From the NCBI GenBank assembly GCA_045600985.1, contig JAZRYY010000037.1, positions 23,031-87,030 of the forward strand: a stretch of 64,000 bases of DNA, written 5' to 3'. This DNA is from Paludibacteraceae bacterium (GTDB lineage: Bacteria; Bacteroidota; Bacteroidia; Bacteroidales; Paludibacteraceae). A program made the translations under genes and the position numbers. The notes below the pieces were generated by a model. That model did no database searches. It saw only the letters and a list, made by a program, of their open reading frames with translations, and had not been told where the DNA came from. Positions 50,310 through 63,999 of the stretch are shown here, one piece after another; the first letter of the stretch is position 1, and the number at the start of each line of letters is the position of its first letter.

Positions 50310-51860
50310 ATGGCAACTCAGGAAGAAACATTCAAAAAGATTGTGGCGCACTGCAAGGAATACGGTTTCGTATTCCCTTCTTCAGAAATCTACGACGGCC
50401 TCGGAGCTGTGTATGATTACGGACAGAATGGTGTGGAACTCAAAAATAACATCAAGCGTTATTGGTGGGATTCAATGACCCTCCTCCATGAGAATATTGT
50501 GGGTATCGATGCGGCTATTTTCATGCACCCTACCACATGGAAGGCTTCGGGCCACGTGGATGCGTTCAATGATCCTCTCATTGATAACCGCGATTCCAAA
50601 AAGCGCTATCGCGCCGACGTCCTCATCGAGGAGCAGCTCGCCAAATATGAGGAGAAAATGAATAAGGAAGTGGAGAAGGCTAAGAAGAAATTCGGAGAAG
50701 CCTTCGATGAGGCACAGTTCCGCTCCACCAACCCTCGCGTACTCGAGAATCAGGCCAAATGGGATGCGCTCCATAAGCGCTATAGCGATGCCATGAATGC
50801 CATGGATCTGGACGAACTCAAGCAGATAATCGTGGATGAGGAAATCGTTTGCCCTATTTCTGGCACACGCAATTGGACCGATGTACGTCAGTTCAATCTC
50901 ATGTTCTCCACCGAGATGGGCTCTACGGCAGATGGTGCTATGAAGATTTATCTCCGTCCGGAAACGGCACAGGGTATTTTCGTGAACTATCTCAATGTGC
51001 AGAAAACAGGCCGCATGAAGATTCCTTTCGGTATTGCGCAGATTGGTAAGGCTTTCCGTAATGAGATCGTGGCTCGTCAGTTCGTCTTCCGTATGCGTGA
51101 GTTCGAGCAGATGGAGATGCAGTTCTTTATCAAACCGGGAACTGAACTCGATTGGTTTGAACATTGGAAGCAGTTCCGCCTGAAGTGGCATAAGGCACTT
51201 GGTCTGGGTGATGAGAAATATCGCTATCATGATCATGAGAAACTGGCTCACTATGCCAATGCCGCTACGGATATCGAGTTCCAGATGCCGTTCGGATTCA
51301 AGGAGGTGGAGGGCATCCATTCTCGTACGAATTTCGATCTCTCTCAGCATGCGCAATATTCGGGTAAGAAGATTGAATATTTCGATCCTGAACTCAATCA
51401 AAGCTACACCCCATACGTGATTGAAACCTCTATCGGCGTGGATCGTATGTTCCTTTCTATTATGTGCGCAGCGTATAAGGAAGAGGCGCTAGAGGGCGGC
51501 GACACCCGCGTGGTGCTTAGTCTCCCTGCTGTGCTCGCTCCGGTGAAGGCTTGCGTGATGCCGCTTGTGAAGAAGGATGGTCTGCCAGAGAAGGCTCGCG
51601 AGATCCAGGACATGCTCAAGTTCGATTTCAAAACCAATTATGATGAGAAGGATTCCATCGGTAAGCGTTATCGTCGTCAGGACGCAATTGGTACGCCTTT
51701 CTGTATCACCGTGGATCATGATACGCTCACGGATGGTTGCGTAACGGTTCGTTATCGCGATACGATGACGCAGGATCGCATCCGCATTGAGGATCTTCAT
51801 GCACTTTTGCAAAAAGCCTGCGATATGAAGCAGCTCTATCGAAAGTTGATGGAAAAATAA
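50310..51860 (+). CDS. glyQS: Glycine--tRNA ligase (dimeric class II type)
   Basis: N-terminal FKKIVAHCKEYGFVFPSSEIYDGLG, class II motifs, anticodon-binding C-terminus. 516 aa. Confidence 0.9.
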   Translation: MATQEETFKKIVAHCKEYGFVFPSSEIYDGLGAVYDYGQNGVELKNNIKRYWWDSMTLLHENIVGIDAAIFMHPTTWKASGHVDAFNDPLIDNRDSKKRYRADVLIEEQLAKYEEKMNKEVEKAKKKFGEAFDEAQFRSTNPRVLENQAKWDALHKRYSDAMNAMDLDELKQIIVDEEIVCPISGTRNWTDVRQFNLMFSTEMGSTADGAMKIYLRPETAQGIFVNYLNVQKTGRMKIPFGIAQIGKAFRNEIVARQFVFRMREFEQMEMQFFIKPGTELDWFEHWKQFRLKWHKALGLGDEKYRYHDHEKLAHYANAATDIEFQMPFGFKEVEGIHSRTNFDLSQHAQYSGKKIEYFDPELNQSYTPYVIETSIGVDRMFLSIMCAAYKEEALEGGDTRVVLSLPAVLAPVKACVMPLVKKDGLPEKAREIQDMLKFDFKTNYDEKDSIGKRYRRQDAIGTPFCITVDHDTLTDGCVTVRYRDTMTQDRIRIEDLHALLQKACDMKQLYRKLMEK

Positions 51861-51887
51861 AACGCACACAGCTGCTTTGTTCCAGTC

Positions 51888-52022
51888 TTGGTCAAGCCAC
51901 ACAATAGCGACACTTGAACGACACCTGAACGACACTTGAGCCACTCAAGAGAGACACCTGAACGACTCAAAAGCTTCTCAAGTCGCAAGTCCCGCTCAGG
52001 TGGCTTGACCAACATTTTTTTT
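51888..52022 (+). terminator. Terminator-like hairpin after glyQS with a ~99-nt stutter-repeat loop
   Basis: 13-bp arms ttggtcaagccac (51888-51900) and gtggcttgaccaa (52000-52012), followed by 8 T (52015-52022). The loop contains acttgaacgac / acctgaacgac / acctgaacgac-type units. Confidence 0.5.
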
Positions 52023-52105
52023 GCTAGTTTTTGCTATCTTGACATGCTAAAATACTACAAAAATGCATAAAATTACACTTTTTTTGCATTTTTCTTCTGA
52101 AATAT

Positions 52106-52136
52106 TTGGTCATATCAAAAAAAAGTAGTAATTTTG
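52106..52136 (+). promoter_or_regulatory. Bacteroidota-type promoter for tRNA-Asp
   Basis: TTTG at 52106-52109 and TAATTTTG at 52129-52136, within tttggtcatatcaaaaaaaagtagtaattttg. Confidence 0.65.
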
Positions 52137-52178
52137 CACCCGCTTTCGAGAAAGAACTACTTCTCGTAGCTGAAAAAA

Positions 52179-52252
52179 GGTGCGGTAGTTCAGTTGGTTA
52201 GAATATCGGCCTGTCACGCCGGAGGTCGCGGGTTCGAGTCCCGTCCGCACCG
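52179..52252 (+). tRNA. tRNA-Asp (anticodon GTC)
   Basis: Hand-folded cloverleaf. Acceptor GGTGCGG/CCGCACC, D-arm GTTC..GAAT, anticodon stem TCGGC/GCCGG with loop CTGTCAC, T-arm GCGGG TTCGAGT CCCGT, discriminator G. CCA is not encoded. Confidence 0.85.
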
Positions 52253-52305
52253 CAAAAGCATTGAGCATCGGCTCGATGCTTTTTTGCGTTTAGTGCAGGG
52301 CTCTG
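52221..52305 (+). repeat. Direct repeat copy 1 (tRNA-Asp 3' half plus terminator plus 20 bp)
   Basis: 85 bp repeated almost exactly at 52366-52452. Confidence 0.9.
52257..52286 (+). terminator. Terminator after tRNA-Asp
   Basis: agcattgagc / gctcgatgct stem (one G-T pair), loop atcg, then ttttt. Confidence 0.7.
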
Positions 52306-52365
52306 TTCCCGCGTACGCCGATTGATCGTTCGAACGAAGTGAGATAAGAATATCCTTTATATAAC

Positions 52366-52452
52366 GGAGGTCGCGGGTTCGAGTCCCGTCCGCACCGCAA
52401 AAAGCATTGAGCATCGGCTCGATGCTTTTTTTGCGTTTAGTGCAGGGCTCTG
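52366..52452 (+). repeat. Direct repeat copy 2, containing a 3' tRNA-Asp fragment (52366-52397) and a second terminator
   Basis: ggaggtcgcgggttcgagtcccgtccgcaccg plus the terminator hairpin and tttagtgcagggctctg. It differs from copy 1 only by extra A/T in the homopolymer runs. Confidence 0.9.
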
Positions 52453-52673
52453 ATCTCGCGTTATTCCCGATTTAACGATTTGGCGGTTTTACTATGCCTC
52501 GGTATCTCTCCAGAATATCGCCTGCAAACTCTATGCCTAATCCGTGGAACTTTTCCGTACCCACTTCTCTTTCTTGATTACATAAAAGCTTTGGTGAGAA
52601 ACACAAAAAAATGCATTCAAACATGTAAAAACACAAAAAAAGTCCGCTTTTTCCATAGAAAATGCCTCGAAAA

Positions 52674-52705
52674 TTTGGTGATTTCAAAAAAAAGTTGTAT
52701 CTTTG
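52674..52705 (+). promoter_or_regulatory. Bacteroidota-type promoter for upxY, with a ~95-nt leader
   Basis: TTTG at 52674-52677 and TATCTTTG at 52698-52705. Confidence 0.6.
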
Positions 52706-52803
52706 CGCGATTTATTGGGCGTATTTTGCCCGCGCACGTCCTCCTGCCCGCATGTGACAGGGGGAAAAACGTCGTACCTATACGTTTAAAATTTCCTAAT
52801 AGT

Positions 52804-53343
52804 ATGCCAGCAAATTCATCCCAAATATGGTGGGCGGTTTACACCCAGCCTTGTCACGAGAAGCGCGTTGCGCAGTCGCTCGCTGCCGCCGGTGAGGAGG
52901 TCTTTGTGGCAACCCGCAAGGAGATTCATCAGTGGTCCGACCGCAAGAAGGAGGTCGAGGTGCTCCTCATTCCTCACGTCATTTTCCTCCGTGCCACAAA
53001 AGAGCATCGTGAGGAACTTATTCGAACCAATCCTCGCTTAGTTGGCGTGATGAGAGAGGCTGTTTCTCGCACCCCTATCGTCATTCCTGATAGCCAGATG
53101 CAAACTTTCATCACTGCCGTTCTATCGTCCTCTACCGAACTCAAGTTCGTGTCAAAGGACGATCCACAATACACAGCCGTCAGTTTCAACCCCGGAGATG
53201 AAATCACTATCTTACGTGGCAAATTCAAAGGAACCAAGGGTTATATCATCAACGCCCAAAATGTCAACCGTTTTGTTGTTCGGGTGGGTTCCCTTGGTCT
53301 TCTAATTTTACCATGTGTTGATGTTGAACTCGTAGAAAGTTAA
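52804..53343 (+). CDS. UpxY-family (NusG-like) transcription antiterminator
   Basis: WWAVYTQPCHEKRVAQSL NGN-type N-terminus and KOW-like GDEITILRGKFKGTKGYI. Start placed downstream of the promoter. Confidence 0.75.
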   Translation: MPANSSQIWWAVYTQPCHEKRVAQSLAAAGEEVFVATRKEIHQWSDRKKEVEVLLIPHVIFLRATKEHREELIRTNPRLVGVMREAVSRTPIVIPDSQMQTFITAVLSSSTELKFVSKDDPQYTAVSFNPGDEITILRGKFKGTKGYIINAQNVNRFVVRVGSLGLLILPCVDVELVES

Positions 53344-53362
53344 TTAATCGCTTATCAACTGT

Positions 53363-54283
53363 ATGCAACTTCGCTATTTGCTCTTCCTTTTTGTCACGTT
53401 GTTTCTCGTCGCTTCTTGCCGGAACAGAGTTGAAGAGTTAACCGATACTACCTCTCTCACCATCCGCATCTGCGAGGAGACCACCACTCCCAAGTCGGTC
53501 TATCCGCTCCAGCTCACGGTCTCTACCGAGACGGGCGTCACGTGTCATGACGAGCGCATCACTTCCCCGGGGGCAACGGCCTTCATGACCCTTCCGACTT
53601 GGGCACGCTACCATATTGTGGCCCGTTCTTCGGTCGGCTATTCGGCTTTCTGCGAGTACCTCCTTCGCGACCAACCCGCAACCCTCGTGCTCATGCTTTC
53701 GGCCGATCCCGCCCCCTCTACAGGCGACACTATCCATATCAATCTGGATGATCCCAATACACCTCCCACCGCATCCGAGGACTCGCTTCTCACGCCAGAC
53801 GTCATCCGCATAGATTCGCTCCCAAGTCCATGCAGCCTTTGGCGCGACCATCTCGTGGCGTTCATAGATTCGCTCTCGCCTAACGTCTCTGAACTCACGC
53901 TCCTCTCGCTCTACGATTGGGGCGACCTGCCCTCGGCTAACCACACCTCTCGTCCGGATGAGGCCCTCAGCATAGTTTCCAACTACACCGAACTCGAGCT
54001 CAACTCCGGTTGGCGCATCCCCACCACCGATCAGGCCAAACGTCTTCGCGACACCTATGGCAGCAACCTGCCTGCTCACGACAGCATCAATGCGCTCCTC
54101 CGTTCGATAGAAGCTTCCGAGATAGTGCTCAAGATCGGCAACGACAATGCTCGTTACCTCTGCGATGAAGGCCTCCGGTCCTTCTCCTTCGTCTCCGGCA
54201 CCAGCATCTCCGCTGCCGGCACCAAGGCCACCAACTACCGCCTCCGCCTCATCCGCACCCTCCGAGTTACAACGAAACAGTAA
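53363..54283 (+). CDS. Lipoprotein, function unknown (C-terminal GWRIPT motif as in DUF1566/FISUMP-type domains)
   Basis: Lipobox LFLVASC. SGWRIPTTDQAKRL motif. GC-rich relative to neighbours. Confidence 0.5.
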   Translation: MQLRYLLFLFVTLFLVASCRNRVEELTDTTSLTIRICEETTTPKSVYPLQLTVSTETGVTCHDERITSPGATAFMTLPTWARYHIVARSSVGYSAFCEYLLRDQPATLVLMLSADPAPSTGDTIHINLDDPNTPPTASEDSLLTPDVIRIDSLPSPCSLWRDHLVAFIDSLSPNVSELTLLSLYDWGDLPSANHTSRPDEALSIVSNYTELELNSGWRIPTTDQAKRLRDTYGSNLPAHDSINALLRSIEASEIVLKIGNDNARYLCDEGLRSFSFVSGTSISAAGTKATNYRLRLIRTLRVTTKQ

Positions 54284-54295
54284 AATTTAAAAATT

Positions 54296-54748
54296 ATGTC
54301 CGATATAGAAATCCAGCAACAAATGGACGCCATGCGTGCCTTGGATGAGCCCATGCCTCAGGTTGGCATCTTCTGGTACGATCCCAACGACCGCATTTTC
54401 TTCGGTGTCCGCAAGCAGGAACTCACTCCCAAACAGGTGGAGGAAGCAGCCGACAAAGGTCTGCCCTTCATCAACTACCCCCACCTCCATCGTCAGGTGT
54501 GGGCAAAGGAATACTTCCGTGCGCAAGCCACAGGCGAACCCACCAAGTTCATGGGTGACTACACCCAGGTACCAAGAGGTCGTGTCGCTTGGAATATCAA
54601 CAAGTTCATCGTCTTTGTAGGCCAATGGGCCAAACCCATCGAAGCCGAGCTCTCCGAGATGATCGAGAAAGAATTCGCTCTCCCATACTTCGAATTCGTC
54701 TATGACATCCATTGGGACCTTGGTCACGGCTGGTCAGGCGATTTATAA
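54296..54748 (+). CDS. Hypothetical cytoplasmic protein (150 aa)
   Basis: Clean ORF with coding-like composition. No motif recognised. Confidence 0.5.
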   Translation: MSDIEIQQQMDAMRALDEPMPQVGIFWYDPNDRIFFGVRKQELTPKQVEEAADKGLPFINYPHLHRQVWAKEYFRAQATGEPTKFMGDYTQVPRGRVAWNINKFIVFVGQWAKPIEAELSEMIEKEFALPYFEFVYDIHWDLGHGWSGDL

Positions 54749-54779
54749 TATTAGTTCTAACCCTCAAAACTCCATCAAT

Positions 54780-55668
54780 ATGAATCGTCTCGCTTATCTA
54801 TTCGCTTGCCTCATACTTCTCGCATTCGCTTCTTGCCAAAGAAACGGAGAACCCACGGGCGAAGTGGCCGCCACTCTCAATCTGTCCTCCAACGAGAATG
54901 CGGTTTGGCGCAACAATACCACTCGTGCCGCAGCTGCCGAACCAGCCACCATGGATATCTATTATGTCCTCGATGCCAACGGCATCTGTCAGACGGCTGC
55001 CAAAGTGGATCATGCCACTCCCGCCACAGCCGACAAACTCCTTGCTTTCGGTGATTATAGTGTCTTCTGCATCACCAATGCTGATCCCATCCGGACTCCC
55101 ATATTCGGCTTCGATGATCGGTACAGACTTCACCGACCAGCCCATGGTGCTCAACACCCTCACTGATGTCAGCTTCGGCCAGCAGCCGCTTACCATCCTA
55201 GCCTCCCAAACCAATTACGACATCAATGTGCCCGTCAACCATATCCTCGCGCAACTCTCACTCACTATCTCCAGCGTACCCGAGGACATCACATCCATAG
55301 CCGTTACCCTCACCAATGTCTCCAAGACCTTCACCCTCGATGGTACCTTTGCTGAGGACGGCACCACCCAAACGCTCTACCTCCAATCGGCCACATCTGC
55401 CAATGCCGATGGCACCTACGACTGGACCCTTCCCGAGTCCCTCATCTATCCGTGTCCCACAGGCGCAACTGCTACGGTCCTCACTATTGTAGCCACCGAC
55501 ACTAACGGCAATGCCACCACATACACCTCCTCCACTACCACCGTGTGCTCCTCAAGCACCCGTACCAATCTCGCCACCACCTGGCGCACCCTTGCCGACC
55601 ACCTCTCCTACGACTACACCGAGAACCCTTGGACTACCACCATCCAGCAAGGCTCCTTCGATATGTGA
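54780..55668 (+). pseudogene. Mfa2/FimB-like fimbrial lipoprotein gene split by a +1 frame change near 55105-55125
   Basis: The N-terminal lipoprotein part (MNRLAYLFACLILLAFASC...) in frame 0 stops at 55166. Sensible sequence continues in frame +1 from TDFTDQPMVLNTLTDVSFG to 55668. The family call is tentative. Confidence 0.5.
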
Positions 55669-55891
55669 TGTGCTGGGTTGTTGTAAAGTCAAGGAGTTGA
55701 TTATAATTTGTGCGACTGCAGTTATTTAAATTTTCTGCTTAAAACTTTAATTAGCAAAACCCTTGTTTAAGTTTTTGCTCCAAAATTTAAATAAGCTTCC
55801 TACTTATATTAAAAATATTATGCAAAATTTAAATTCTGGAACATATAAAGACCAAGGATACATTATACAAACATAATTCATTAATTTGAAA

Positions 55892-56137
55892 ATGGAGAAG
55901 AGATCATTATTAGAACTAGAGCAGATTGTTGATGGCGCAACTGACGCTATTGAATACAAACTGGTTGTAGCCTCTTTAATATCAATGATAGGTAAGTTTT
56001 CATTCGATAGTAAGTACGATTTAATCAATGTATTGCGCAGCCTCGTTTGTGAGTTTAACTACGAAATGAAGATTGATGTTGCTCGCAGAAAATGCAAAAG
56101 TTGCAATAACTGCAGTTTCGATGGCTCTTCAATATAA
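55892..56137 (+). CDS. Small hypothetical protein (81 aa from the ATG) with C-terminal CxxCxxC
   Basis: First ORF of the low-GC operon. KCKSCNNCSF at the C-terminus. The track start at 55886 is TTG. Confidence 0.4.
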   Translation: MEKRSLLELEQIVDGATDAIEYKLVVASLISMIGKFSFDSKYDLINVLRSLVCEFNYEMKIDVARRKCKSCNNCSFDGSSI

Positions 56138-56162
56138 TTAAAGACCTTAAAAACAATGTCTT

Positions 56163-56963
56163 ATGAACGATAGCATTTTTGTTTATATAATAGTTACACT
56201 ACTATCAGGAGTAGTTGGTGCTTTTATTGGTACTTATTTCGGAGCCATCTTCTCTGCACGAAGACAAGAGAAGTGCCTGAGAGAAGTACGGAAGATGGCA
56301 TTAAAGGCCATAAACATCTTCAAGAGCTACGCTCATGGAGGTAAGACTTTTGCCGAGACAGCAGATCAGTTCAATAATTCAATGAGCATCTCGGAGAAAA
56401 GAACAGTAATTGTTGCATTACATAAACTTGGTATCCCTGTTCAGGTCTTGTCTAATGAGACCTTCAATATATCAAAAGTTACATTTGCTTGTCAAATAAT
56501 TGATAAGGAAGAGTTGGATGCCATTGCAAGACAAATAGAATCGGGGCATTGTGATACACTATTTCACAGCGATCCGGAGAAGTATTTTGACGATAATATT
56601 CGTCAGAAGTCCTTACGATCTGTTGCAAGACGTTGGGTTCTGGAAGTTCTTGTCAACAGCAACATAAGTGAAGATCGCCAAATAGTCACATATCCCAAGG
56701 ATTGGTTCAACGCTTTTACATTAGGCGAGAGATATGCTCTTTGCGTGATGAAAGAAAGAATCTCTACGGAAGAGTATTTCAATTCTAATGCTCAAATTGA
56801 TAGCAAGAAAATCGCAGACCTTCTCCGCGACATAGATTGTGGTCTCTGGGACAACTGCTTGTATTGGGACTATACGAACTACCGAAGTGTCGTCAGCGCA
56901 ATGAGTCTCAATGCAACAGTAGAAGGGATGATTCATAACTCCTCAAATAGCGCACCGGAATAA
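56163..56963 (+). CDS. Hypothetical protein with a single N-terminal TM helix (266 aa)
   Basis: IFVYIIVTLLSGVVGAFIGTYFGAIF followed by a soluble domain. It lies 25 nt after the previous ORF and 12 nt before the next. Confidence 0.55.
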   Translation: MNDSIFVYIIVTLLSGVVGAFIGTYFGAIFSARRQEKCLREVRKMALKAINIFKSYAHGGKTFAETADQFNNSMSISEKRTVIVALHKLGIPVQVLSNETFNISKVTFACQIIDKEELDAIARQIESGHCDTLFHSDPEKYFDDNIRQKSLRSVARRWVLEVLVNSNISEDRQIVTYPKDWFNAFTLGERYALCVMKERISTEEYFNSNAQIDSKKIADLLRDIDCGLWDNCLYWDYTNYRSVVSAMSLNATVEGMIHNSSNSAPE

Positions 56964-56975
56964 TAGATAGAACTT

Positions 56976-59084
56976 ATGACAACAAATATATTACATTTAT
57001 CAATTAACGATCTATTGCTGGATCCTAACAATTATCGTTTTATTGATGCAGATCATTATGTCCATACCAGTGAAGAACGATATGCTGACGAAAAAGTACA
57101 ATCAAATACATATCGACTTGTTACAGGAAAAAATAATGATGGTATATTGGATCTTATTAGCAGTTTTAAAGCGAATGGATTCATCAATGATGGTGAAATT
57201 CAGGTTAGGAAACATGAACTGTCAGGCAAGTATCTCGTAATAGAAGGAAACAGACGAGTTTCTACCCTTTTGTATTTCCGTAGGATGTTGAAGGATGGAT
57301 ATGCTTTTGATAAAATTGGTGATGCCGATTTGAGCGATATCATCGTTAAAGAAATAAAAGACATTGATCAGCTTTCCTATAAAATTGCTATGGGATTGCA
57401 GCATGTAGCAGGAAAAAAGAAATGGAATCCTATTAATCAGGCACAACTTCTGTATGATCTCATTTATGAAAATAACGTACCAGAGGATGAAGTGTGTGCT
57501 TCTCTTGGTTTGTCAAAGCAGGCTGTGCGTAAAAGCATACGTACTTTATTTCTGATTAAAGCATATCGTCAAAGTGATTTTGGTGATCAAATGCAAAGTG
57601 CAAAGTACTCCTTCTTTGAGGAAGCTATAAAGAATCCTCAGATGCGTGATTGGTTAGGATGGAATGACGACAGTAAAAAATGTGAAAATTCATTGAATCA
57701 AGAACGCTTCTTTACATGGATTTCCAATACGACAGATGAATATGGTAATACCATATCCGCAATAATAGAGAAAAGTGTGGATGTGCGACGACTTACCTCA
57801 ATTATTACCAACGAGGCAGCATTAAGACATATGGAAGAAGTCCATTCCTTTGAAGATGCTTACACATATACTGCAAATGATAACAAAGCTGCTGTTCAAT
57901 ATGCATTAAACAGGTTGGAAACCACTCTTCCTACATTAATAGCTAATAGTGTTTATTTGTCCAAAAATGAACAAGATCAATTAAGGAGACTTGTTGCAGC
58001 ATTAAAACCAGTCGTTGATGCAGATGAGATACGTTTGGGCGTTTTCTCCTCTATTAGTGTCTTTAACGAACTGACATGTCATTTTTCAGAAGTAAAGATA
58101 CATAGATTCAGAGGAATTAGCGAAATGGCACTGTCCACGCTATCAGATGTGAACCTTTTTGTCGGTGAAAATAATTGCGGTAAAACAAGTTTGCTGGAAG
58201 CAATTTACATGCTGACACAACAGAACAATATCAAACGCTATCTTGAGATGGAACAATTGAGATCTAAGAATCAAGGTAGCATTCATACAGACTGGTTAGT
58301 TAATTATGTTGCAAAATCTTTTGATATAGAGGGTACATTCAATGGATATCGATGTAGTGTAAACTTTTCATGCAAACCTTCAGAAAGTAAAAAACTTGAT
58401 AAGAATAACTACATTACGACTCTATCATCAACTTCTTCAATTGATATGCCTGATGGCGTATTTAAGTCATACCTGCATCTTTACAATAATAAGCAGCCTG
58501 TTCTCAATTACGATAGAATCGCAAACTTGTGCCCGAGTGCATTATCTTCCTCTTATCGAAGAGACTTCAATGCATTTATAACGGCTCATCGTATTGCCGT
58601 GGAAAAAGGTGTAATGCCAGAAATCATAGATTTTCTTGTAAAGCATGTTGACCCTGCCATTCAAAATATTCAACTCACGGGGGAAGATGGCTCGAATCGT
58701 TTTGTAGTCACTACTCGTAATAATTCGATTGGGCAGGATTTGACTAAGTTCGGAGAAGGACTGCAGCGAGTATTTGAGATTTCTCTTTATATTGCAGCAT
58801 GTGCAAATGGTTGCTTATTTGTGGATGAGATAGATTCTGCAATTCATAAAAAACTGCTTCCTAATTTTATAAGGCAAGTCGTGACACTTTGTAATCGTTT
58901 TAATGTTCAGCTCTTTGTAACCACGCACAGCAAAGAATGTATAGACATTTTCGCTAATGCGGGACTTGGTACACAATTGTCAGCATATAGATTACGTCCT
59001 CTTGGTAACGATTGCACCATAAATTATACAGATGGTGAGAATCTGAAAGAAATGATTGACATGTTTAATGTAGATATACGATAA
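56976..59084 (+). CDS. ParB/Srx-like N-terminal domain + HTH + ABC/OLD-type (AAA_15/AAA_21-like) ATPase fusion
   Basis: LSINDLLLDPNNYRF and YLVIEGNRRVSTL (ParB-box-like). HTH-like EDEVCASLGLSKQAVRKSIRTL. Walker A GENNCGKTSLLEAI (397-410), signature-like FGEGLQR, Walker B CLFVDEIDSAIH, H-loop LFVTTHSKE. Confidence 0.7.
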   Translation: MTTNILHLSINDLLLDPNNYRFIDADHYVHTSEERYADEKVQSNTYRLVTGKNNDGILDLISSFKANGFINDGEIQVRKHELSGKYLVIEGNRRVSTLLYFRRMLKDGYAFDKIGDADLSDIIVKEIKDIDQLSYKIAMGLQHVAGKKKWNPINQAQLLYDLIYENNVPEDEVCASLGLSKQAVRKSIRTLFLIKAYRQSDFGDQMQSAKYSFFEEAIKNPQMRDWLGWNDDSKKCENSLNQERFFTWISNTTDEYGNTISAIIEKSVDVRRLTSIITNEAALRHMEEVHSFEDAYTYTANDNKAAVQYALNRLETTLPTLIANSVYLSKNEQDQLRRLVAALKPVVDADEIRLGVFSSISVFNELTCHFSEVKIHRFRGISEMALSTLSDVNLFVGENNCGKTSLLEAIYMLTQQNNIKRYLEMEQLRSKNQGSIHTDWLVNYVAKSFDIEGTFNGYRCSVNFSCKPSESKKLDKNNYITTLSSTSSIDMPDGVFKSYLHLYNNKQPVLNYDRIANLCPSALSSSYRRDFNAFITAHRIAVEKGVMPEIIDFLVKHVDPAIQNIQLTGEDGSNRFVVTTRNNSIGQDLTKFGEGLQRVFEISLYIAACANGCLFVDEIDSAIHKKLLPNFIRQVVTLCNRFNVQLFVTTHSKECIDIFANAGLGTQLSAYRLRPLGNDCTINYTDGENLKEMIDMFNVDIR

Positions 59085-59085
59085 A

Positions 59086-59898
59086 ATGGTAGTAAAGATT
59101 CTTTTAGTTGAAGGAAGACATGATGCTGCCTTTATCGGCCGTATCTTAAAAGCCAATGGTTATGAAGATAGCAAATTGACAATCGGTGAATATCCTGAGT
59201 TTATCAAAGGCTATCTTACGAAGTTCTTTGAAGGAGCGCATATAGAGGATTCTACAATCAAGAACGTGGTTTCTAACTTATTCCTTCCTTCTTCATCACT
59301 TTCAGTATCGTCGGATCCTAATCAAATGTTGATTATTTTCCCCATGGGCGGTGATGCACAAAAAGACAGAAGAAGAGAACTTATTAGAAAGCTGTACAAA
59401 ATATTTAGCAACCCAATGTTTCAGGATGGAAAAGACTCACTTAAGATTATCTATAATCTTGATGCCGATGAACATGGTATTGCATTTCGAGAGCAGCAGG
59501 TTAATGAGGAATTACATGAGATAACAGATTCATCTATTCCTGAAATACATAATACATCTTGGACTCCATTTTGCGGAATTCAATGGGGATTATATGTGTT
59601 TGCTGATCCAACCACAGGAAAAGGGAAACTGGAGAATTTAGTACTGCCCCTTATTGAAGATAATAAAGAGGACCTAAAGTCATTAGTTGATAATTTTGTT
59701 TTCGAGCGTCCCAAAATGAATTATTGGAACACAAAATACAAACAGTACGATGAAGAGAAAGCCCGTATTAGTATGATGTGCCAAATGGAAATTTCGGGAG
59801 CTGCAAATACCACATTGCTCGTCAAAACAGGTCTAATTGATGATAGAAAACTTCAGACAGGTATTTATAAAGCAATAGTTGACTATATAACTTCATGA
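59086..59898 (+). CDS. Toprim-like protein (DUF3226/DUF4435/DUF4276-like)
   Basis: Starts 1 nt after the ATPase stop. KILLVEGRHDAAFI (Glu9) and IIYNLDADEHG (Asp126-x-Asp128) fit the E...DxD Toprim pattern. 270 aa. Confidence 0.55.
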   Translation: MVVKILLVEGRHDAAFIGRILKANGYEDSKLTIGEYPEFIKGYLTKFFEGAHIEDSTIKNVVSNLFLPSSSLSVSSDPNQMLIIFPMGGDAQKDRRRELIRKLYKIFSNPMFQDGKDSLKIIYNLDADEHGIAFREQQVNEELHEITDSSIPEIHNTSWTPFCGIQWGLYVFADPTTGKGKLENLVLPLIEDNKEDLKSLVDNFVFERPKMNYWNTKYKQYDEEKARISMMCQMEISGAANTTLLVKTGLIDDRKLQTGIYKAIVDYITS

Positions 59899-60348
59899 TT
59901 GATTATTTGTGTGTTTATTTACCCTAGTTCTTCATCTTGACTCAAGTTTTGAGAATATGATCGAACCATCCATCTAAAATATTCTTCAAATGCTTGATAC
60001 ACGTCCCTTGATACTGCAAGGAACCGCTTACGAGTCCTTCGGTCGTAAAATTTGCCCCATTCTACTTAACCAGTTTATAACAGTGTGTCACACAGTGGAT
60101 TATGTGTGCTCAAATTCATGATGGCAATTCCATTTGGGACCGATTTGGGACTATGAAGGAAAAGGGTGTGGCGTAGGTGTGAGGGACATCTTGACATTAC
60201 TCAGAAGACCCTCCCTGTTGCCGAAAGCATCAAATCGTCGAAAAGAATTAAAATCAGGTAAGAACTCTCTCACAAGGAATAAACCATTTCGGTGGCGTCA
60301 ACGATTTGGTCTCTACCCATATCTTTTCGTTGACCTCACTGATATGAT

Positions 60349-60648
60349 CGTTTCGTCATCGTTACCTTATTTTGTAAAGTCGCTCACCCGTCCCTTGAAT
60401 GGGATGTAAAATCGTTATCGTAGCAAAGCGTATCGTCATCGTCATCGTACGAAGTGGTACACCCGTCCCCCGTCGCGTGCATTCCGATGCTGTGCTATTG
60501 GAGGTGAGGACTTGCTTTTGGGACCTGCTTTGATGATCCGTTGAATGGAGATTTGGATTATATAACAATGAACGCGTATAAGTAAGATCAACTCAATAAG
60601 TCATCGTTATCGCCATCGTCTTCGTACGAAGCAAACACCCGTCCCCCG
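60349..60648. repeat. Three related segments (catcgt-type hexamer stutter followed by CACCCGTCCC) in a 1.2-kb non-coding stretch
   Basis: Copies at 60349-60395, 60411-60471 and 60599-60648. The last two share tcgtacgaag..acacccgtccccc. Confidence 0.65.
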
Positions 60649-61046
60649 AATATTCTTGGAGTATCTCCACGTTTTTGTCCGCTCGTCATCCTCAAAGAGG
60701 TGACGCTTTCATAGCGTAAGCGGAGAAAGAACCCTTCACAACCCCCGTAAGGGCTCCTCAAACAATTCATAACCCCAAATAGAGAACAATAAAACAAAAC
60801 GATATGTTAATACCTAATGTAAACCTGACCGGTAAGACCTCGGCTGGTGATGCTTAGGTGAAACCGCCCTCCACACCCTATTGCCTATCAGCAACAGAGT
60901 GTTCCGGGCTAAACAGAGAACAATACGCCAGAGTCTTCCCATCGCCTGCCTTGAGCCAGTCGAAGGGGTCAGACACAGGCTCAAAAATATAATCCACGAA
61001 AATTCGCGGATCATTCACGGACATTCGCGTTAAGGAAAAACAACCC

Positions 61047-61085
61047 CTCGAACCGTTCAAACATTTCGAACCATTCGAACACATT
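61047..61085. repeat. Stutter repeat (ttcgaacc-type units) upstream of the fnlB-like gene
   Basis: Reads ctcgaaccgttcaaacatttcgaaccattcgaacacatt. Confidence 0.7.
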
Positions 61086-61117
61086 ATAGAATATAATAGA
61101 AAAAAATAATTAACAAT

Positions 61118-62365
61118 ATGCATATACTCGTAACCGGTGCGAAAGGTTTCGTAGGAAAGAACCTCTGCGCACAACTCAACAACATCAAAGAAGGCAAGGC
61201 TAAATGCTATGGCGACCTCGTAGTAGAGGATGTCTATCAGTACGATATCGACTCTACGCCAGAGCAACTTGATGAATACTGCCAAAAGGCTGATTTCGTT
61301 TTCAACCTCGCTGGTGTCAACCGTCCTCAAAACCAGGAGGAATTTATGCAGGGCAATTTCGGCTTCGCTTCTACGCTGCTTGATACCCTCAAGAAACACC
61401 ACAACACTTGTCCGGTGATGTTGTCCAGTTCTATCCAGGCCACGCTTGCCGGCCGTTTCGGCACGTCTGAATATGGCAAGAGCAAGAAGGCAGGTGAGGA
61501 ACTTTTCTTCGATTATAGCAAAGAAACGGGCGCTAAGGTACTCGTATATCGATTCCCTAATCTTTATGGCAAGTGGTGTCGTCCTAACTACAACTCGGCT
61601 GTGGCTACGTTCTGCAATAATATCGCCAACGACCTGCCTATCACGGTCAACGACCCAACCGTAGATATGGAACTTCTCTATATCGACGACCTCGTTGAGG
61701 AAATGATCTGTGCACTCAAAGGCGAGGAACACTATTGCACTTTCGATGGTGTCAATGCCATACCACTTGAAACCTCTGAAACTTTGGAACTTGAAACTAA
61801 AGGCGAACATGCGTACGCCTACTGTCCCATCACCCATCACGTCAAGTTGGGCGAGATTGTGGACCTCCTCAATCAGTTTGCCGAGATGCCAAAGACCCTC
61901 ATGATTCCTGAGATCCCTGCCGATTCGTTCGCAAAACGCCTCTATAGCACTTTCCTCAGTTATCTACCTAAAGAGAAAGCCATCTTCGATCTTAAGATGA
62001 ACGTAGATCCACGCGGTAGCTTTACGGAATTGGTTCATACCCTCAATTGCGGTCAGGTCAGCATCAACATCTCCAAGCCGGGCATTACCAAGGGCCAGCA
62101 TTGGCACCACACCAAATGGGAGCAGTTCATCGTCGTTTCCGGCCATGGTCTCATCCAACTCCGCAACGAGAATGATCCTAATGGCGAGATTCTTAATTAT
62201 GAAGTCTATGGCGATAAGATTCAGTCCGTCCTCATGCTCCCTGGCTACACTCACAATATCATCAATCTGAGCGATACTGAAGATTTAGTCACAGTCATGT
62301 ACTGCAACGAGATCTTTAACCCCAATCGCCCGGACACTTACTTCGATCCCGTGGAGCCAAAGTAG
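61118..62365 (+). CDS. fnlB: CapF/WbjC(FnlB)-like bifunctional SDR + cupin enzyme of UDP-L-FucNAc-type sugar synthesis
   Basis: ILVTGAKGFVGKNL, LAGVNRP, LSSSIQA, FPNLYGKWCRPNYNSAVATFC, with a C-terminal cupin-like half. This closely parallels the CapF layout. Confidence 0.7.
   Translation: MHILVTGAKGFVGKNLCAQLNNIKEGKAKCYGDLVVEDVYQYDIDSTPEQLDEYCQKADFVFNLAGVNRPQNQEEFMQGNFGFASTLLDTLKKHHNTCPVMLSSSIQATLAGRFGTSEYGKSKKAGEELFFDYSKETGAKVLVYRFPNLYGKWCRPNYNSAVATFCNNIANDLPITVNDPTVDMELLYIDDLVEEMICALKGEEHYCTFDGVNAIPLETSETLELETKGEHAYAYCPITHHVKLGEIVDLLNQFAEMPKTLMIPEIPADSFAKRLYSTFLSYLPKEKAIFDLKMNVDPRGSFTELVHTLNCGQVSINISKPGITKGQHWHHTKWEQFIVVSGHGLIQLRNENDPNGEILNYEVYGDKIQSVLMLPGYTHNIINLSDTEDLVTVMYCNEIFNPNRPDTYFDPVEPK
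61766..61797 (+). repeat. CTGAAAC-family stutter repeat in frame in the fnlB-like gene (peptide LETSETLELET)
   Basis: Reads cttgaaacctctgaaactttggaacttgaaac, in codon phase 1 of the ORF, in the linker between the SDR and cupin halves. Confidence 0.8.
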
Positions 62366-62393
62366 TTTCAAGTTTCATGTTCCAAGATTCAAG
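62366..62393 (-). repeat. Inverted copy of the TTGAATC/TGAAAC repeat family, left flank of the four-helix-bundle gene
   Basis: Plus strand reads tttcaagtttcatgttccaagattcaag. The reverse complement is cttgaatcttggaacatgaaacttgaaa. Confidence 0.65.
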
Positions 62394-62395
62394 AT

Positions 62396-62797
62396 ATGGC
62401 AAAAGCAGAAAAGTTTGAAGATTTGGTAATCTTCCAGAAAGCACGTGAACTTTGTAAAGAAGTTTATCGTGTGACAAATCAAGAACCGTGGAAATACGAT
62501 ACACGATTTGTACAGCAAATCCATGCAGCTGTTGGCAGCATTATGGATAATATTGCTGAAGGTTACGAACGTGATGGCAACAAGGAGTTCAAGAACTTCC
62601 TATATATTGCCAAAGGATCATGTGGTGAGGTTCGCTCTCAGATAATTCGAGCTTCTGATGTTGGTTTTATAGATTCAGAAACATCAACGAAGTTATATAA
62701 TGATTGTATAGCTCTCAACAAGAGCATTGCAGCCTTTATCAAGAGTCTTCGTGTGGGCGGAATTTCCGGTATCAAGTACATGGAACCTGAATCCTGA
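62396..62797 (+). CDS. Four-helix-bundle protein (23S rRNA intervening-sequence protein family)
   Basis: FEDLVIFQKARELCKEVYRVT..., DNIAEGYER, AKGSCGEVRSQ signature blocks. The last codons (MEPES) are supplied by the flanking repeat. Confidence 0.8.
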   Translation: MAKAEKFEDLVIFQKARELCKEVYRVTNQEPWKYDTRFVQQIHAAVGSIMDNIAEGYERDGNKEFKNFLYIAKGSCGEVRSQIIRASDVGFIDSETSTKLYNDCIALNKSIAAFIKSLRVGGISGIKYMEPES

Positions 62798-62849
62798 AAC
62801 CACCTGAATCCTGAAACCACCTGAATCCAGAAACTTGAATCCTGAAACC
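62785..62849 (+). repeat. 17-bp tandem repeat acctgaatcctgaaacc, about 3.8 copies
   Basis: Exact units at 62785-62801 and 62802-62818, variant acctgaatccagaaact at 62819-62835, partial tgaatcctgaaacc at 62836-62849. Confidence 0.9.
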
Positions 62850-62904
62850 AAAGAATATCGAAAGTATAACAAATAATATAAACATATAATAAACAAACGT
62901 TCTT

Positions 62905-63999
62905 ATGAGTATTTTCAAAGACAAAGTCCTCATGATTACCGGTGGTACCGGTTCATTTGGTAATGCAGTTCTCAACCGTTTCCTGAAGACCGACATTGCA
63001 GAGATCCGCATCTTCTCTCGTGACGAGAAGAAGCAGGACGATATGCGTCACCTCTATCAGGTAACCATGCCCGAGGTAGCCAACAAAATCAAGTTCTACA
63101 TCGGTGATGTTCGCGACCTCCAGTCTTGCCGCAACGCAATGCCTGGTGTTGACTACATCTTCCATGCAGCAGCCCTCAAGCAGGTGCCTTCTTGCGAGTT
63201 CTTCCCTATGGAAGCCGTTCGCACCAATGTCATTGGTACCGACAATGTCCTCACCGCTGCTATCGAGGCCAAGGTGGGCGCTGTTATCTGCCTTTCAACC
63301 GATAAGGCTGCCTATCCTATCAACGCCATGGGTATCACCAAGGCTATCGAGGAGAAGATTGCAGTAGCAAAGAGTCGTTACTCAGGTGATACCAAGATCT
63401 GTTGCACCCGTTATGGCAACGTGATGTGCTCTCGTGGCTCCGTTATCCCTCTGTGGATTGACCAGATTCGCAACGGTAATCCTATCACCATCACCGAACC
63501 AAAGATGACACGCTTCATCATGTCGCTTGAAGAAGCCGTTGACCTCGTTCTCTTCGCTTTCGAGCATGGTCAGAATGGTGATATCCTCGTCCAGAAAGCT
63601 CCTGCCTGCACCATCCAAACTCAGGCAGAGGCTGTAATCGATCTCTTCAAGCATCAGTTCGCACAGAACTTGAATCCTGAAACTCTGAAACCTGAAACCT
63701 CAGAACCCGAAATTCGTGTCATTGGCATCCGTCACGGTGAGAAGCTCTACGAGACCCTCCTCACCAACGAAGAGTGTGCCAAAGCCGAGGATATGGGCAA
63801 CTTCTATCGCGTTCCTGCTGACAACCGTGGCTTGAACTACGATAAGTACTTCAAGGAAGGTGACGAAAAGCGTAACACCCTCACCGAGTTCAACTCCGAC
63901 AATACCACCCGTCTCAACCTCGAAGAGACCAAGTCCAAGATTGCCGCACTCGAGTATATCCAGAATGAGCTCAAAGGTATCGAAAATATAGCTAAGTAA
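62905..63999 (+). CDS. fnlA: FnlA/CapE/WbjB-like UDP-GlcNAc 4,6-dehydratase/5-epimerase
   Basis: KVLMITGGTGSFGNAVLNRFL, IRIFSRDEKKQDDMR, YIGDVRD, HAAALKQVPSCEF. 364 aa including a repeat-derived insert. Confidence 0.8.
   Translation: MSIFKDKVLMITGGTGSFGNAVLNRFLKTDIAEIRIFSRDEKKQDDMRHLYQVTMPEVANKIKFYIGDVRDLQSCRNAMPGVDYIFHAAALKQVPSCEFFPMEAVRTNVIGTDNVLTAAIEAKVGAVICLSTDKAAYPINAMGITKAIEEKIAVAKSRYSGDTKICCTRYGNVMCSRGSVIPLWIDQIRNGNPITITEPKMTRFIMSLEEAVDLVLFAFEHGQNGDILVQKAPACTIQTQAEAVIDLFKHQFAQNLNPETLKPETSEPEIRVIGIRHGEKLYETLLTNEECAKAEDMGNFYRVPADNRGLNYDKYFKEGDEKRNTLTEFNSDNTTRLNLEETKSKIAALEYIQNELKGIENIAK
63664..63712 (+). repeat. CTGAAAC-family stutter repeat in frame in the fnlA-like gene (peptide QNLNPETLKPETSEPEI)
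   Basis: Reads cagaacttgaatcctgaaactctgaaacctgaaacctcagaacccgaaatt, in codon phase 1. Positions 63676-63692 are identical to the reverse complement of 28779-28795. Confidence 0.85.

Follow-up and report, generated by a model that had tools for sequence, protein, structure and literature searches.

A horizontally mobile cassette in a Bacteroidales capsule locus: a ParB-fused ABC ATPase and its DUF3226 partner as members of the phage-defence candidate PDC-M38

The stretch of DNA analysed here, hereafter the window, covers 64,000 nucleotides (nt) of a Paludibacteraceae bacterium (assembly GCA_045600985.1, contig JAZRYY010000037.1, positions 23,031 to 87,030 of the forward strand) and contains a low-GC island with four co-oriented open reading frames (ORFs), named ORF1, gene 2, gene 3 and gene 4 in the direction of transcription (Table 1). 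An earlier note, made from the sequence alone, had presented the island as an undescribed four-gene anti-phage operon of the PARIS/OLD class. The layout on which that proposal was built has been reproduced, with four ORFs of the same lengths on one strand and gaps of 25, 12 and 1 nt between them, and genes 2, 3 and 4 are real genes with many homologues each. The guanine-plus-cytosine (GC) content is 0.31-0.40 over 55750-59999, against roughly 0.5 in the host; the 50-60% GC that had been given for both flanks stands for the left one (0.51-0.59 over 53250-55749) but was overstated for the right one (0.43-0.49 over 60000-62249). The core of the island, genes 3 and 4, belongs by sequence comparison to PDC-M38, a catalogued phage-defence candidate, and is credible as a defence system without being a new kind of one.

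The product of gene 3 has, as read from its sequence, an ABC ATPase core of the OLD/AbiL/PARIS class preceded by N-terminal ParB/Srx and helix-turn-helix (HTH) domains. Its match to the PADLOC model PDLC04607 (PDC-M38A; E 6.8e-215, 713.6 bits) extends over residues 8-702 and over positions 12-714 of the 715 in the profile; since the match runs end to end, the existing M38A model must already hold a ParB-like N-terminus, a module that the other M38A models (362-383 positions) do not have. Both AAA_15 (2.7e-18) and AAA_21 (1.5e-16) of Pfam are found above their cut-offs, and the next best PADLOC matches, to AbiLi (4e-33, residues 372-661), AriA (1.4e-19), HEC-02A (1e-14) and NsnB (2.9e-13), are confined to the ATPase half, the Walker A region also being matched by GajA models. 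The motifs that had been read from the sequence are all present in the translations, namely Walker A GENNCGKT at 397-404 (with K403), FGEGLQR at 592-598, FVDEID at 614-619, TTHS at 649-652 and R93/R94 in gene 3, and E9 and D126-A-D128 in gene 4. In an alignment of 34 gene 3 relatives (36-71% identity), LDPNNYR, G91-N-R-R94, GxNNxGKT, GEGxxR (593-598), D617-E618 and H651 of the H-loop are invariant or at least 90% conserved, with the LDPNNYR and EGNRR boxes being invariant. The AlphaFold2 model of the whole protein has a predicted local distance difference test (pLDDT) score of 85.1, and Foldseek places its ABC half with PtuA, Rad50, SMC heads and OLD (probability 1.0, E 1e-11 to 4e-9).

The ParB assignment of the N-terminus holds at the level of the family rather than of the single sequence. 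Among 17 family members, the N-terminal 360 residues match ParB_N in 9 and HTH_ParB in 15 (best E-values 1.4e-5 and 3.8e-5, respectively), and gene 3 itself reaches E 2.2e-5 with TIGR00180. The best true matches in a profile search of the PDB, ParB (6t1f) and Noc, are weak (E 0.023-0.6), and their alignment is collinear over the GxRR box and the HTH; in tblastn searches, residues 55-319 match RefSeq entries annotated as 'ParB N-terminal domain-containing protein'. Motifs, family-level ParB matches and the AAA_15/AAA_21 matches agree on the fusion of a ParB/Srx-HTH module to an ABC/OLD-type ATPase, as had been suggested. An exact look-up of the gene 3 product returned no record, and a scan of genome contigs with this single protein gave one weak ParB-domain match only; the protein search yields a family of at least 496 clusters, together with 420 metagenomic matches, in Bacteroidota and beyond. 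One relative (P0052, 698 aa) diverges right after Walker B, and has a match to Mrr_cat (PF04471) where the C-terminal ABC lobe normally lies; this could be a natural fusion of an ATPase with a restriction nuclease, or else a chimeric short contig of 2.5 kilobases (kb).

Gene 4 matches two PADLOC models of PDC-M38B (PDLC04615, 4.8e-47; PDLC04613, 1.2e-41) as well as Pfam DUF3226 (PF11536; 1.7e-11, above cut-off), and its family comprises 235 representative clusters in an exhaustive profile search. Across 111 diverse relatives, E9, G10, D126 and K225 do not vary, and conservation reaches at least 90% at H12, D13, A127, D128 and E183; these residues form the motifs vEGxHD and DADxxG, which read as the two classical Toprim motifs. 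The E...DxD Toprim pattern proposed earlier for the 270-aa protein is found again in E9 and D126xD128 and is shared by these relatives. Such an acidic triad suggests an Mg2+-dependent nuclease, and gene 4 is presumed to encode a Toprim-like, metal-dependent nuclease effector.

The collection to which PDC-M38 belongs consists of 145 predicted candidates of one or several genes, selected from genes that sit within BREX, DISARM and type I restriction-modification (RM) loci, with 'M' standing for multi-gene candidates; two cassettes of two genes each are entered under PDC-M38 in the supplementary table (Payne et al. 2024, bioRxiv 10.1101/2024.01.29.577857). The products of genes 3 and 4 match PDC-M38A and PDC-M38B at full length, the ParB fusion included, and the term 'undescribed' can no longer be applied to them; the PADLOC search that had been recommended as a check places the pair with an already named item, though what is named is a candidate. 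No paper mentioning PDC-M38 or DUF3226 was found in a literature search. The two genes are also strictly paired. The 110 loci that were analysed fall into 54 clusters at 85% identity, and in all of the 51 clusters with at least 300 nt of downstream sequence a DUF3226-family gene directly follows the ATPase gene, at distances of -59 to +141 nt, a result that affirms the expected co-conservation of the gene pair.

In these loci the pair occurs in defence contexts. Among its 130 nearest flanking ORFs, HsdR (11-12), HsdS (8) and HsdM (6-7) are the most frequent families, with Piwi (3), Schlafen (2) and BrxL (1) coming next, and the usual layout at RM loci is hsdM-hsdS-[pair]-hsdR; GmrSD, an AAA_15+DUF4435 (PARIS-like) pair, RelE and HigB occur as further neighbours. 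The search for defence genes beside homologues, also recommended earlier, was thus positive, with type I RM, prokaryotic Argonaute, BrxL and DarTG/CBASS genes found next to the pair. In five P2-like proviruses from IMG/VR, a pair of 31-34% identity is located with replication gene A on one side and the portal/terminase genes on the other. This position is an accessory-gene slot, which we take to be the one that P2 uses for old/tin. Two rhizobial plasmids (NZ_CP064694.1 and NZ_CP104153.1) encode stand-alone proteins that resemble residues ~7-319 of gene 3 and are annotated as 'ParB N-terminal domain-containing protein', in a conserved cluster with a DEAD/DEAH helicase and DGQHR (DndB-like), radical SAM, ATP-binding and PIN-like proteins. 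These genes were considered as an unfused form of M38 and rejected, as they belong to this different cluster, which may serve DNA modification or defence as a system of its own.

The frequent vicinity of restriction genes raises the question of whether the pair acts as a guard of restriction systems, following the logic of PrrC and PARIS: the ParB-HTH module would sense anti-restriction factors, such as the DNA mimic Ocr, and the nuclease would attack host tRNA, leading to abortive infection and not to direct restriction of phage DNA. About one fifth of the non-redundant loci have the pair beside type I RM subunits, and the PDCs were defined by such positions. In PARIS, Ocr is sensed by AriA and tRNA cleaved by AriB (PMC13064643, PMC12839542), and OLD-ABC modules in RM and BREX loci have been proposed to act as suicidal effectors kept in reserve (PMC12839542). 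However, no RM system adjoins the copy in the window or those at most loci, and the ParB-family sensors of SspE, GmrSD and Menshen are believed to recognise DNA directly (PMC12065111). We consider a guard function unlikely.

Table 1. Features of the island and its downstream border (positions are those of the window).
Feature	Position	Strand	Remarks
ORF1	55892..56137	+	81 aa from ATG; 83 aa from TTG at 55886
Gene 2	56163..56963	+	266 aa
Gene 3	56976..59084	+	702 aa
Gene 4	59086..59898	+	270 aa
ParB/Srx-like N domain (~aa 1-130) and ParB-type HTH (~aa 150-198), predicted	56976..57569	+	LDPNNYR 15-21, EGNRR 90-94
ABC ATPase head (aa 369-702), predicted	58080..59081	+	Conserved motifs; AbiLi, AriA and NsnB matches
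Three-gene cassette (genes 2-4), minimal block common to other contigs	56065..59908	+	Nucleotide identity to L124 and L025
ORF-poor stretch downstream	59909..60611	.	Common to L025 (96%), not L124; repeated ~20-45-nt motifs; outside minimal cassette

The borders of the island can be drawn from nucleotide similarity to other contigs. Window positions 56065-59908 match positions 2615-6466 of contig L124 at 94.8% identity, the match stopping 10 nt past the stop codon of gene 4, and positions 56077-60611 match contig L025 at 96.3% identity, running to the end of that contig; a third contig, L017, is similar to gene 2 only (56109-56942, 84%). Because the similarity to L124 and L025 spans 56065 or 56077 to a point past gene 4, the mobile unit, so far as sequence comparison defines it, is a 3.84-kb block of genes 2-4 and not a set of four genes. 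The cassette occupies three unrelated contexts: in the window it lies inside a capsule locus, in L124 between DarT-Macro (DarTG) genes and a SAVED-SMODS-E2 CBASS operon, and in L025 behind GreA, PRiA4 and TnsA-like genes. The island is a recently transferred, horizontally mobile cassette; a search of its ends found no flanking repeats, integrase or transposase. Searched by tblastn at 1e-20, collections of 72,556 plasmids and 50,697 phage records gave no relative of the gene 3 fusion, and at 1e-3 they yielded separate ParB-N or ATPase fragments only.

Mobility of this kind, together with the ParB-like domain and the SMC/Rad50/RecF-like matches of the ATPase, could also be expected of genes with no role in immunity, either a selfish addiction module, similar to toxin-antitoxin (TA) pairs, that stabilises mobile DNA, or genes for DNA maintenance by ParB-type partition or Rad50/RecF-like repair; PARIS itself formally behaves as a type II TA pair (PMC13064643). 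Against both versions stand the lack of ParA, parS or a replicon context and of any 1e-20 match in the plasmid and phage collections, the patchy phyletic distribution, the insertions, which are seen in RM operons, in accessory slots of prophages and in defence islands, and the strict partner, which is a nuclease-like protein and not a repair protein. A role outside immunity is, in our opinion, highly improbable.

Neither ORF1 nor gene 2 appears to be part of the family-wide system. ORF1 has no match in Pfam, PADLOC or NCBIfam, its cluster has two members, the single relative being near-identical, and it crosses the left junction of the common block, so that only its last ~73 nt are inside and its 5' two-thirds are outside. 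Since it combines these three properties (no family, one near-identical relative, ~73 nt inside the block), ORF1 is probably an incidental junction ORF and not a component; it is not present in L017, L025, L124 or any other locus examined. The proposal that ORF1, described as a small Cys-motif protein, and gene 2, as a transmembrane (TM) protein, are integral to a new PARIS/OLD-class operon draws on the four co-oriented ORFs, their short gaps and the single low-GC block. It is largely refuted by the absence of a family for ORF1 and by its position two-thirds outside the L025/L124 block, by the absence of both genes from homologous loci and by a core already catalogued as PDC-M38, and we give it next to no credence. 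The four-gene operon of the earlier note is accordingly reduced to a junction ORF, a separable gene that does not occur in the other 53 of the 54 gene 3 clusters, and the pair.

Gene 2 belongs to a conserved family of 37 clusters and is predicted to have one N-terminal glycine-zipper TM helix followed by a conserved soluble domain, with G19/G23/G27, EKRxxxVALHKLG, GxCDxLF and GLWD being invariant; no match was found in Pfam, PADLOC or the PDB. The clusters from which it is missing include a relative of gene 3 with 71% identity. In L017 (2130-4905), a homologue of 87% identity is situated 29 nt upstream of a gene for a different AAA_15/AAA_21 ATPase of 440 aa (best PADLOC match HEC-02A, 1.5e-30), whose 201-aa partner has a D..ExK (PD-(D/E)xK-like) motif and no Pfam match; hhalign found nothing significant between gene 4 and this partner. 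In L018-L024 the homologue occurs alone, near DUF4365/REase, AbiEii, HipA and Schlafen genes, with no ATPase adjoining. On the basis of its distribution, gene 2 is a lineage-specific accessory or independent gene, outside the family-wide system.

It has nevertheless to be asked whether gene 2 could be the true partner, as membrane sensor or membrane-disrupting effector, of varied OLD-type ABC ATPase-nuclease pairs, which would make the cassette a three-component system and a distinct, undescribed variant of PDC-M38. Genes 2, 3 and 4 travel together, the same 3.84-kb block recurring in three contexts that are unrelated, with 12 nt between genes 2 and 3, the homologue in L017 precedes another ATPase with a D..ExK partner, and gene 2 has strongly conserved motifs and defence-type neighbours. 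The three M38-linked copies of gene 2, however, are 94-96% identical and therefore represent a single evolutionary event, homologues also occur without an ATPase alongside, the other gene 3 clusters, the 71%-identical relative included, lack gene 2, and in defence islands it is normal for neighbouring genes to be independent of one another. A third component of this type seems unlikely to us, at about the level of the guard function. A still broader idea, which we put forward as rather doubtful, is that gene 2 is a third component, anchored in the membrane and portable, which can be combined with one or another OLD-type ABC ATPase-nuclease pair (M38 here, HEC-02-like in L017), and that capsule operons of Bacteroidales have repeatedly received such cassettes in their 5' part and in the same orientation, the expression of the cassettes possibly being tied to capsule phase variation. 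If this were true, two layers of phage resistance would be linked.

The surroundings of the island are those of a capsule locus, the order being tRNA-Asp, a NusG/UpxY-like gene, three ORFs, the island and then CapF-like, 23S_rRNA_IVP and FnlA-like genes. A co-oriented M38 pair inside or 5' of polysaccharide or capsule loci is seen in the window (52480-63999) and, in a small sample, on several Bacteroidales contigs (L004-L006, L007, L008, L014, L002 and L017), with UpxY-like, epimerase, DegT, 23S_rRNA_IVP, DUF6016, flippase, EpsG and glycosyltransferase genes flanking it; the capsule locus of L008 also carries a PARIS-like AAA_15+DUF4435 pair, GmrSD and RelE. A literature search found no paper on defence genes embedded in capsule operons. 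Further upstream, a ~146-nt tandem duplication (52220-52314 and 52365-52461, 94-100% identity) comes after the tRNA-Asp gene (52179-52253) and repeats the 3' 38 nt of this gene and the terminator-like hairpin. The whole arrangement (52179-52461) resembles a scar left by integration or excision at the tRNA; as an att site of the island it was rejected, the copies being 146 nt apart and not flanking the cassette. An 11-nt periodic repeat (ACACyTGAACG-like, five copies) lies between the glycine-tRNA ligase gene and tRNA-Asp (51899-51975). The three ORFs that separate the UpxY-like gene from the island (53250-55750) have no Pfam family, a GC content of 0.51-0.59 and a strongly negative GC skew of -0.2 to -0.37; the ORF at 53363-54283 opens with a lipoprotein-type signal, and the overlap of those at 54702-55166 and 54898-55668, which are in different frames, hints at a lipoprotein gene with a frameshift. 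On the other side, the 1.2 kb from gene 4 to the first capsule gene (59909-61117) have no convincing ORF, and a motif (CATCGTCATCGTACGAAG, ACACCCGTCCC) is present there in three copies (~60349-60400, 60429-60469 and 60608-60651). Apart from the tRNA, an Rfam scan of 51800-62500 detected no family.

Taken as a whole, the island is in our judgement likely to be a recently transferred 3.84-kb cassette whose PDC-M38 core is an anti-phage candidate, acting by abortive infection or in the manner of restriction, of the class that combines an OLD-type ABC ATPase with a Toprim-like nuclease. What the data show is that the core belongs to the family, that its motifs are conserved and its two genes strictly paired, that relatives have defence genes as neighbours and that the cassette is mobile. 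The most likely mechanism, by analogy, is that of a sensor ATPase controlling a nuclease, as in AbiL, PARIS and Menshen. Gene 3 would be the sensor and switch, its ParB/Srx-like domain (PNxxR and GNRR boxes) and HTH binding DNA, a nucleotide or a phage protein that mimics DNA. The signal would then pass, by a conformational change, to the C-terminal ABC head, which has all catalytic motifs intact and may dimerise on ATP. Gene 4, as the DUF3226 effector, would be kept inactive or sequestered by gene 3 and, on infection, be released or activated and cut phage DNA or host tRNA/RNA, halting phage replication. The membrane-anchored gene 2, which travels with this cassette lineage, could act as an accessory or as a separate single-gene defence. 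This scheme borrows its defence and nuclease activities, its trigger and its sequence of steps from PARIS, AbiL/RloAB, Gabija and Menshen.

Several results weigh against this interpretation. PDC-M38 is, in the paper that introduced it, a computational candidate only (Payne et al. 2024, bioRxiv 10.1101/2024.01.29.577857), and the trigger, the substrate and the abortive character are drawn purely from analogy. In the window no RM or other defence gene adjoins the cassette, the flanks being capsule genes; promoter and terminator scans gave nothing better than shuffled sequences, and the ~100-nt leader of gene 2 has no recognisable promoter. The window's own gene 3 scores below the curated cut-offs for HTH_ParB (16.5 vs 22.6 bits) and TIGR00180 (24.3 vs 58.45), which is why its ParB assignment was placed at the family level. 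As for gene 4, it matches no Toprim, DUF4435, RloB, AbiLii or AriB model of Pfam or PADLOC (for AriB and DUF4435 at E-values up to 1-10), and hhalign against one DUF4435 protein gave a probability of 0.6%. Its AlphaFold2 model, built from a 3-row alignment, has a pLDDT of 41, the Foldseek matches of that model are meaningless, and PDB profile searches from alignments of 9 and 111 sequences returned nothing significant, PH0156 (2P62) being reached at E 0.11 and 1.7 through the N-terminal motif only. The one link to Toprim, an indirect one from the literature, is that 2P62 is the top HHpred match of an AriB.

Experimental confirmation would turn a computational candidate, PDC-M38, into a working defence system. 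The cassette would then represent a natural single-chain version of the logic of Menshen, with a ParB sensor, an ABC ATPase and a nuclease, and could help to explain how ParB-like domains sense infection. It would also add examples from the Bacteroidales, where few defence systems have been studied in native hosts. The occurrence of gene 2 with two ATPase-nuclease pairs and of defence genes in capsule operons could outweigh the core in interest; both observations rest on few independent events.

The comparison with known systems is closest for PDC-M38 itself, whose two models match at full length, with adjacent and co-oriented genes and with relatives in type I RM loci, as the candidate was defined; the window copy differs in its additional upstream gene 2 and in its position in a capsule locus, not in a locus of the RM or BREX type. 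The AbiL system of Lactococcus (AbiLi/AbiLii) and the RloA/RloB genes from type I RM loci in Campylobacter are two-gene systems in which an ABC ATPase is paired with a Toprim-type partner, as is PARIS (PMC13064643). AbiLi is the best match of the gene 3 ATPase outside M38 and AbiL has been validated as abortive infection, while RloAB shares the link to restriction with many M38 loci; both lack the ParB-HTH N-terminal module, and gene 4 matches neither AbiLii nor RloB models, which places the cassette outside either. PARIS (AriA/AriB) resembles the cassette in its AAA_15/AAA_21 OLD-type ABC ATPase, in its separate small Toprim protein and in its use of prophage and satellite accessory hotspots. 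In PARIS, AriA holds the nuclease and releases AriB on sensing Ocr (PMC13064643, PMC12839542). Gene 3, on the other hand, matches AriA weakly and in part, PARIS has no ParB module, and gene 4 is DUF3226 with no match to an AriB or DUF4435 model, so that the earlier attribution to PARIS by way of DUF4435 cannot be maintained.

Menshen (NsnA/NsnB/NsnC) has the same three elements, a ParB-superfamily DNA sensor, an OLD-type ABC ATPase, to which gene 3 has a partial match, and a nuclease effector, which in some variants is a Toprim-type DUF4276/RloB protein; its ParB-family sensor acts through the OLD-ABC ATPase on the nuclease (PMC12065111). It differs in consisting of three separate proteins, with a DUF262-type ParB (DGxQR) and ParBDB, a DUF3696 tail in NsnB and an inPIN domain in NsnC. 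The ParB of gene 3 is predicted to be canonical (GNRR and ParB HTH) and is in one chain with the ATPase, neither DUF3696 nor inPIN was detected, and GmrSD_N/DUF262 matches 4 of 17 gene 3 relatives weakly (best 0.001); the cassette is not a Menshen system. OLD and Gabija GajA likewise couple an OLD-family ABC ATPase to Toprim catalysis, and the OLD of T. scotoductus (6p74) is a Foldseek match at 4e-9, but there the two activities are in one polypeptide and here in two genes, with GajB helicase absent. HEC-01 and HEC-02 (Hma-embedded ABC ATPase with TOPRIM or NERD; Payne et al. 2024, bioRxiv 10.1101/2024.01.29.577857) are embedded ABC ATPase-nuclease pairs too, from other HMM families and with scores on gene 3 far below those of M38, as for HEC-02A. 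By analogy, the core would work like AbiL, PARIS and Menshen but falls outside each of them, and since the M38 models do match it, it is placed as a member of a known candidate kind; what may be new in the island is confined to the lineage-specific gene 2 and the position in a capsule locus.

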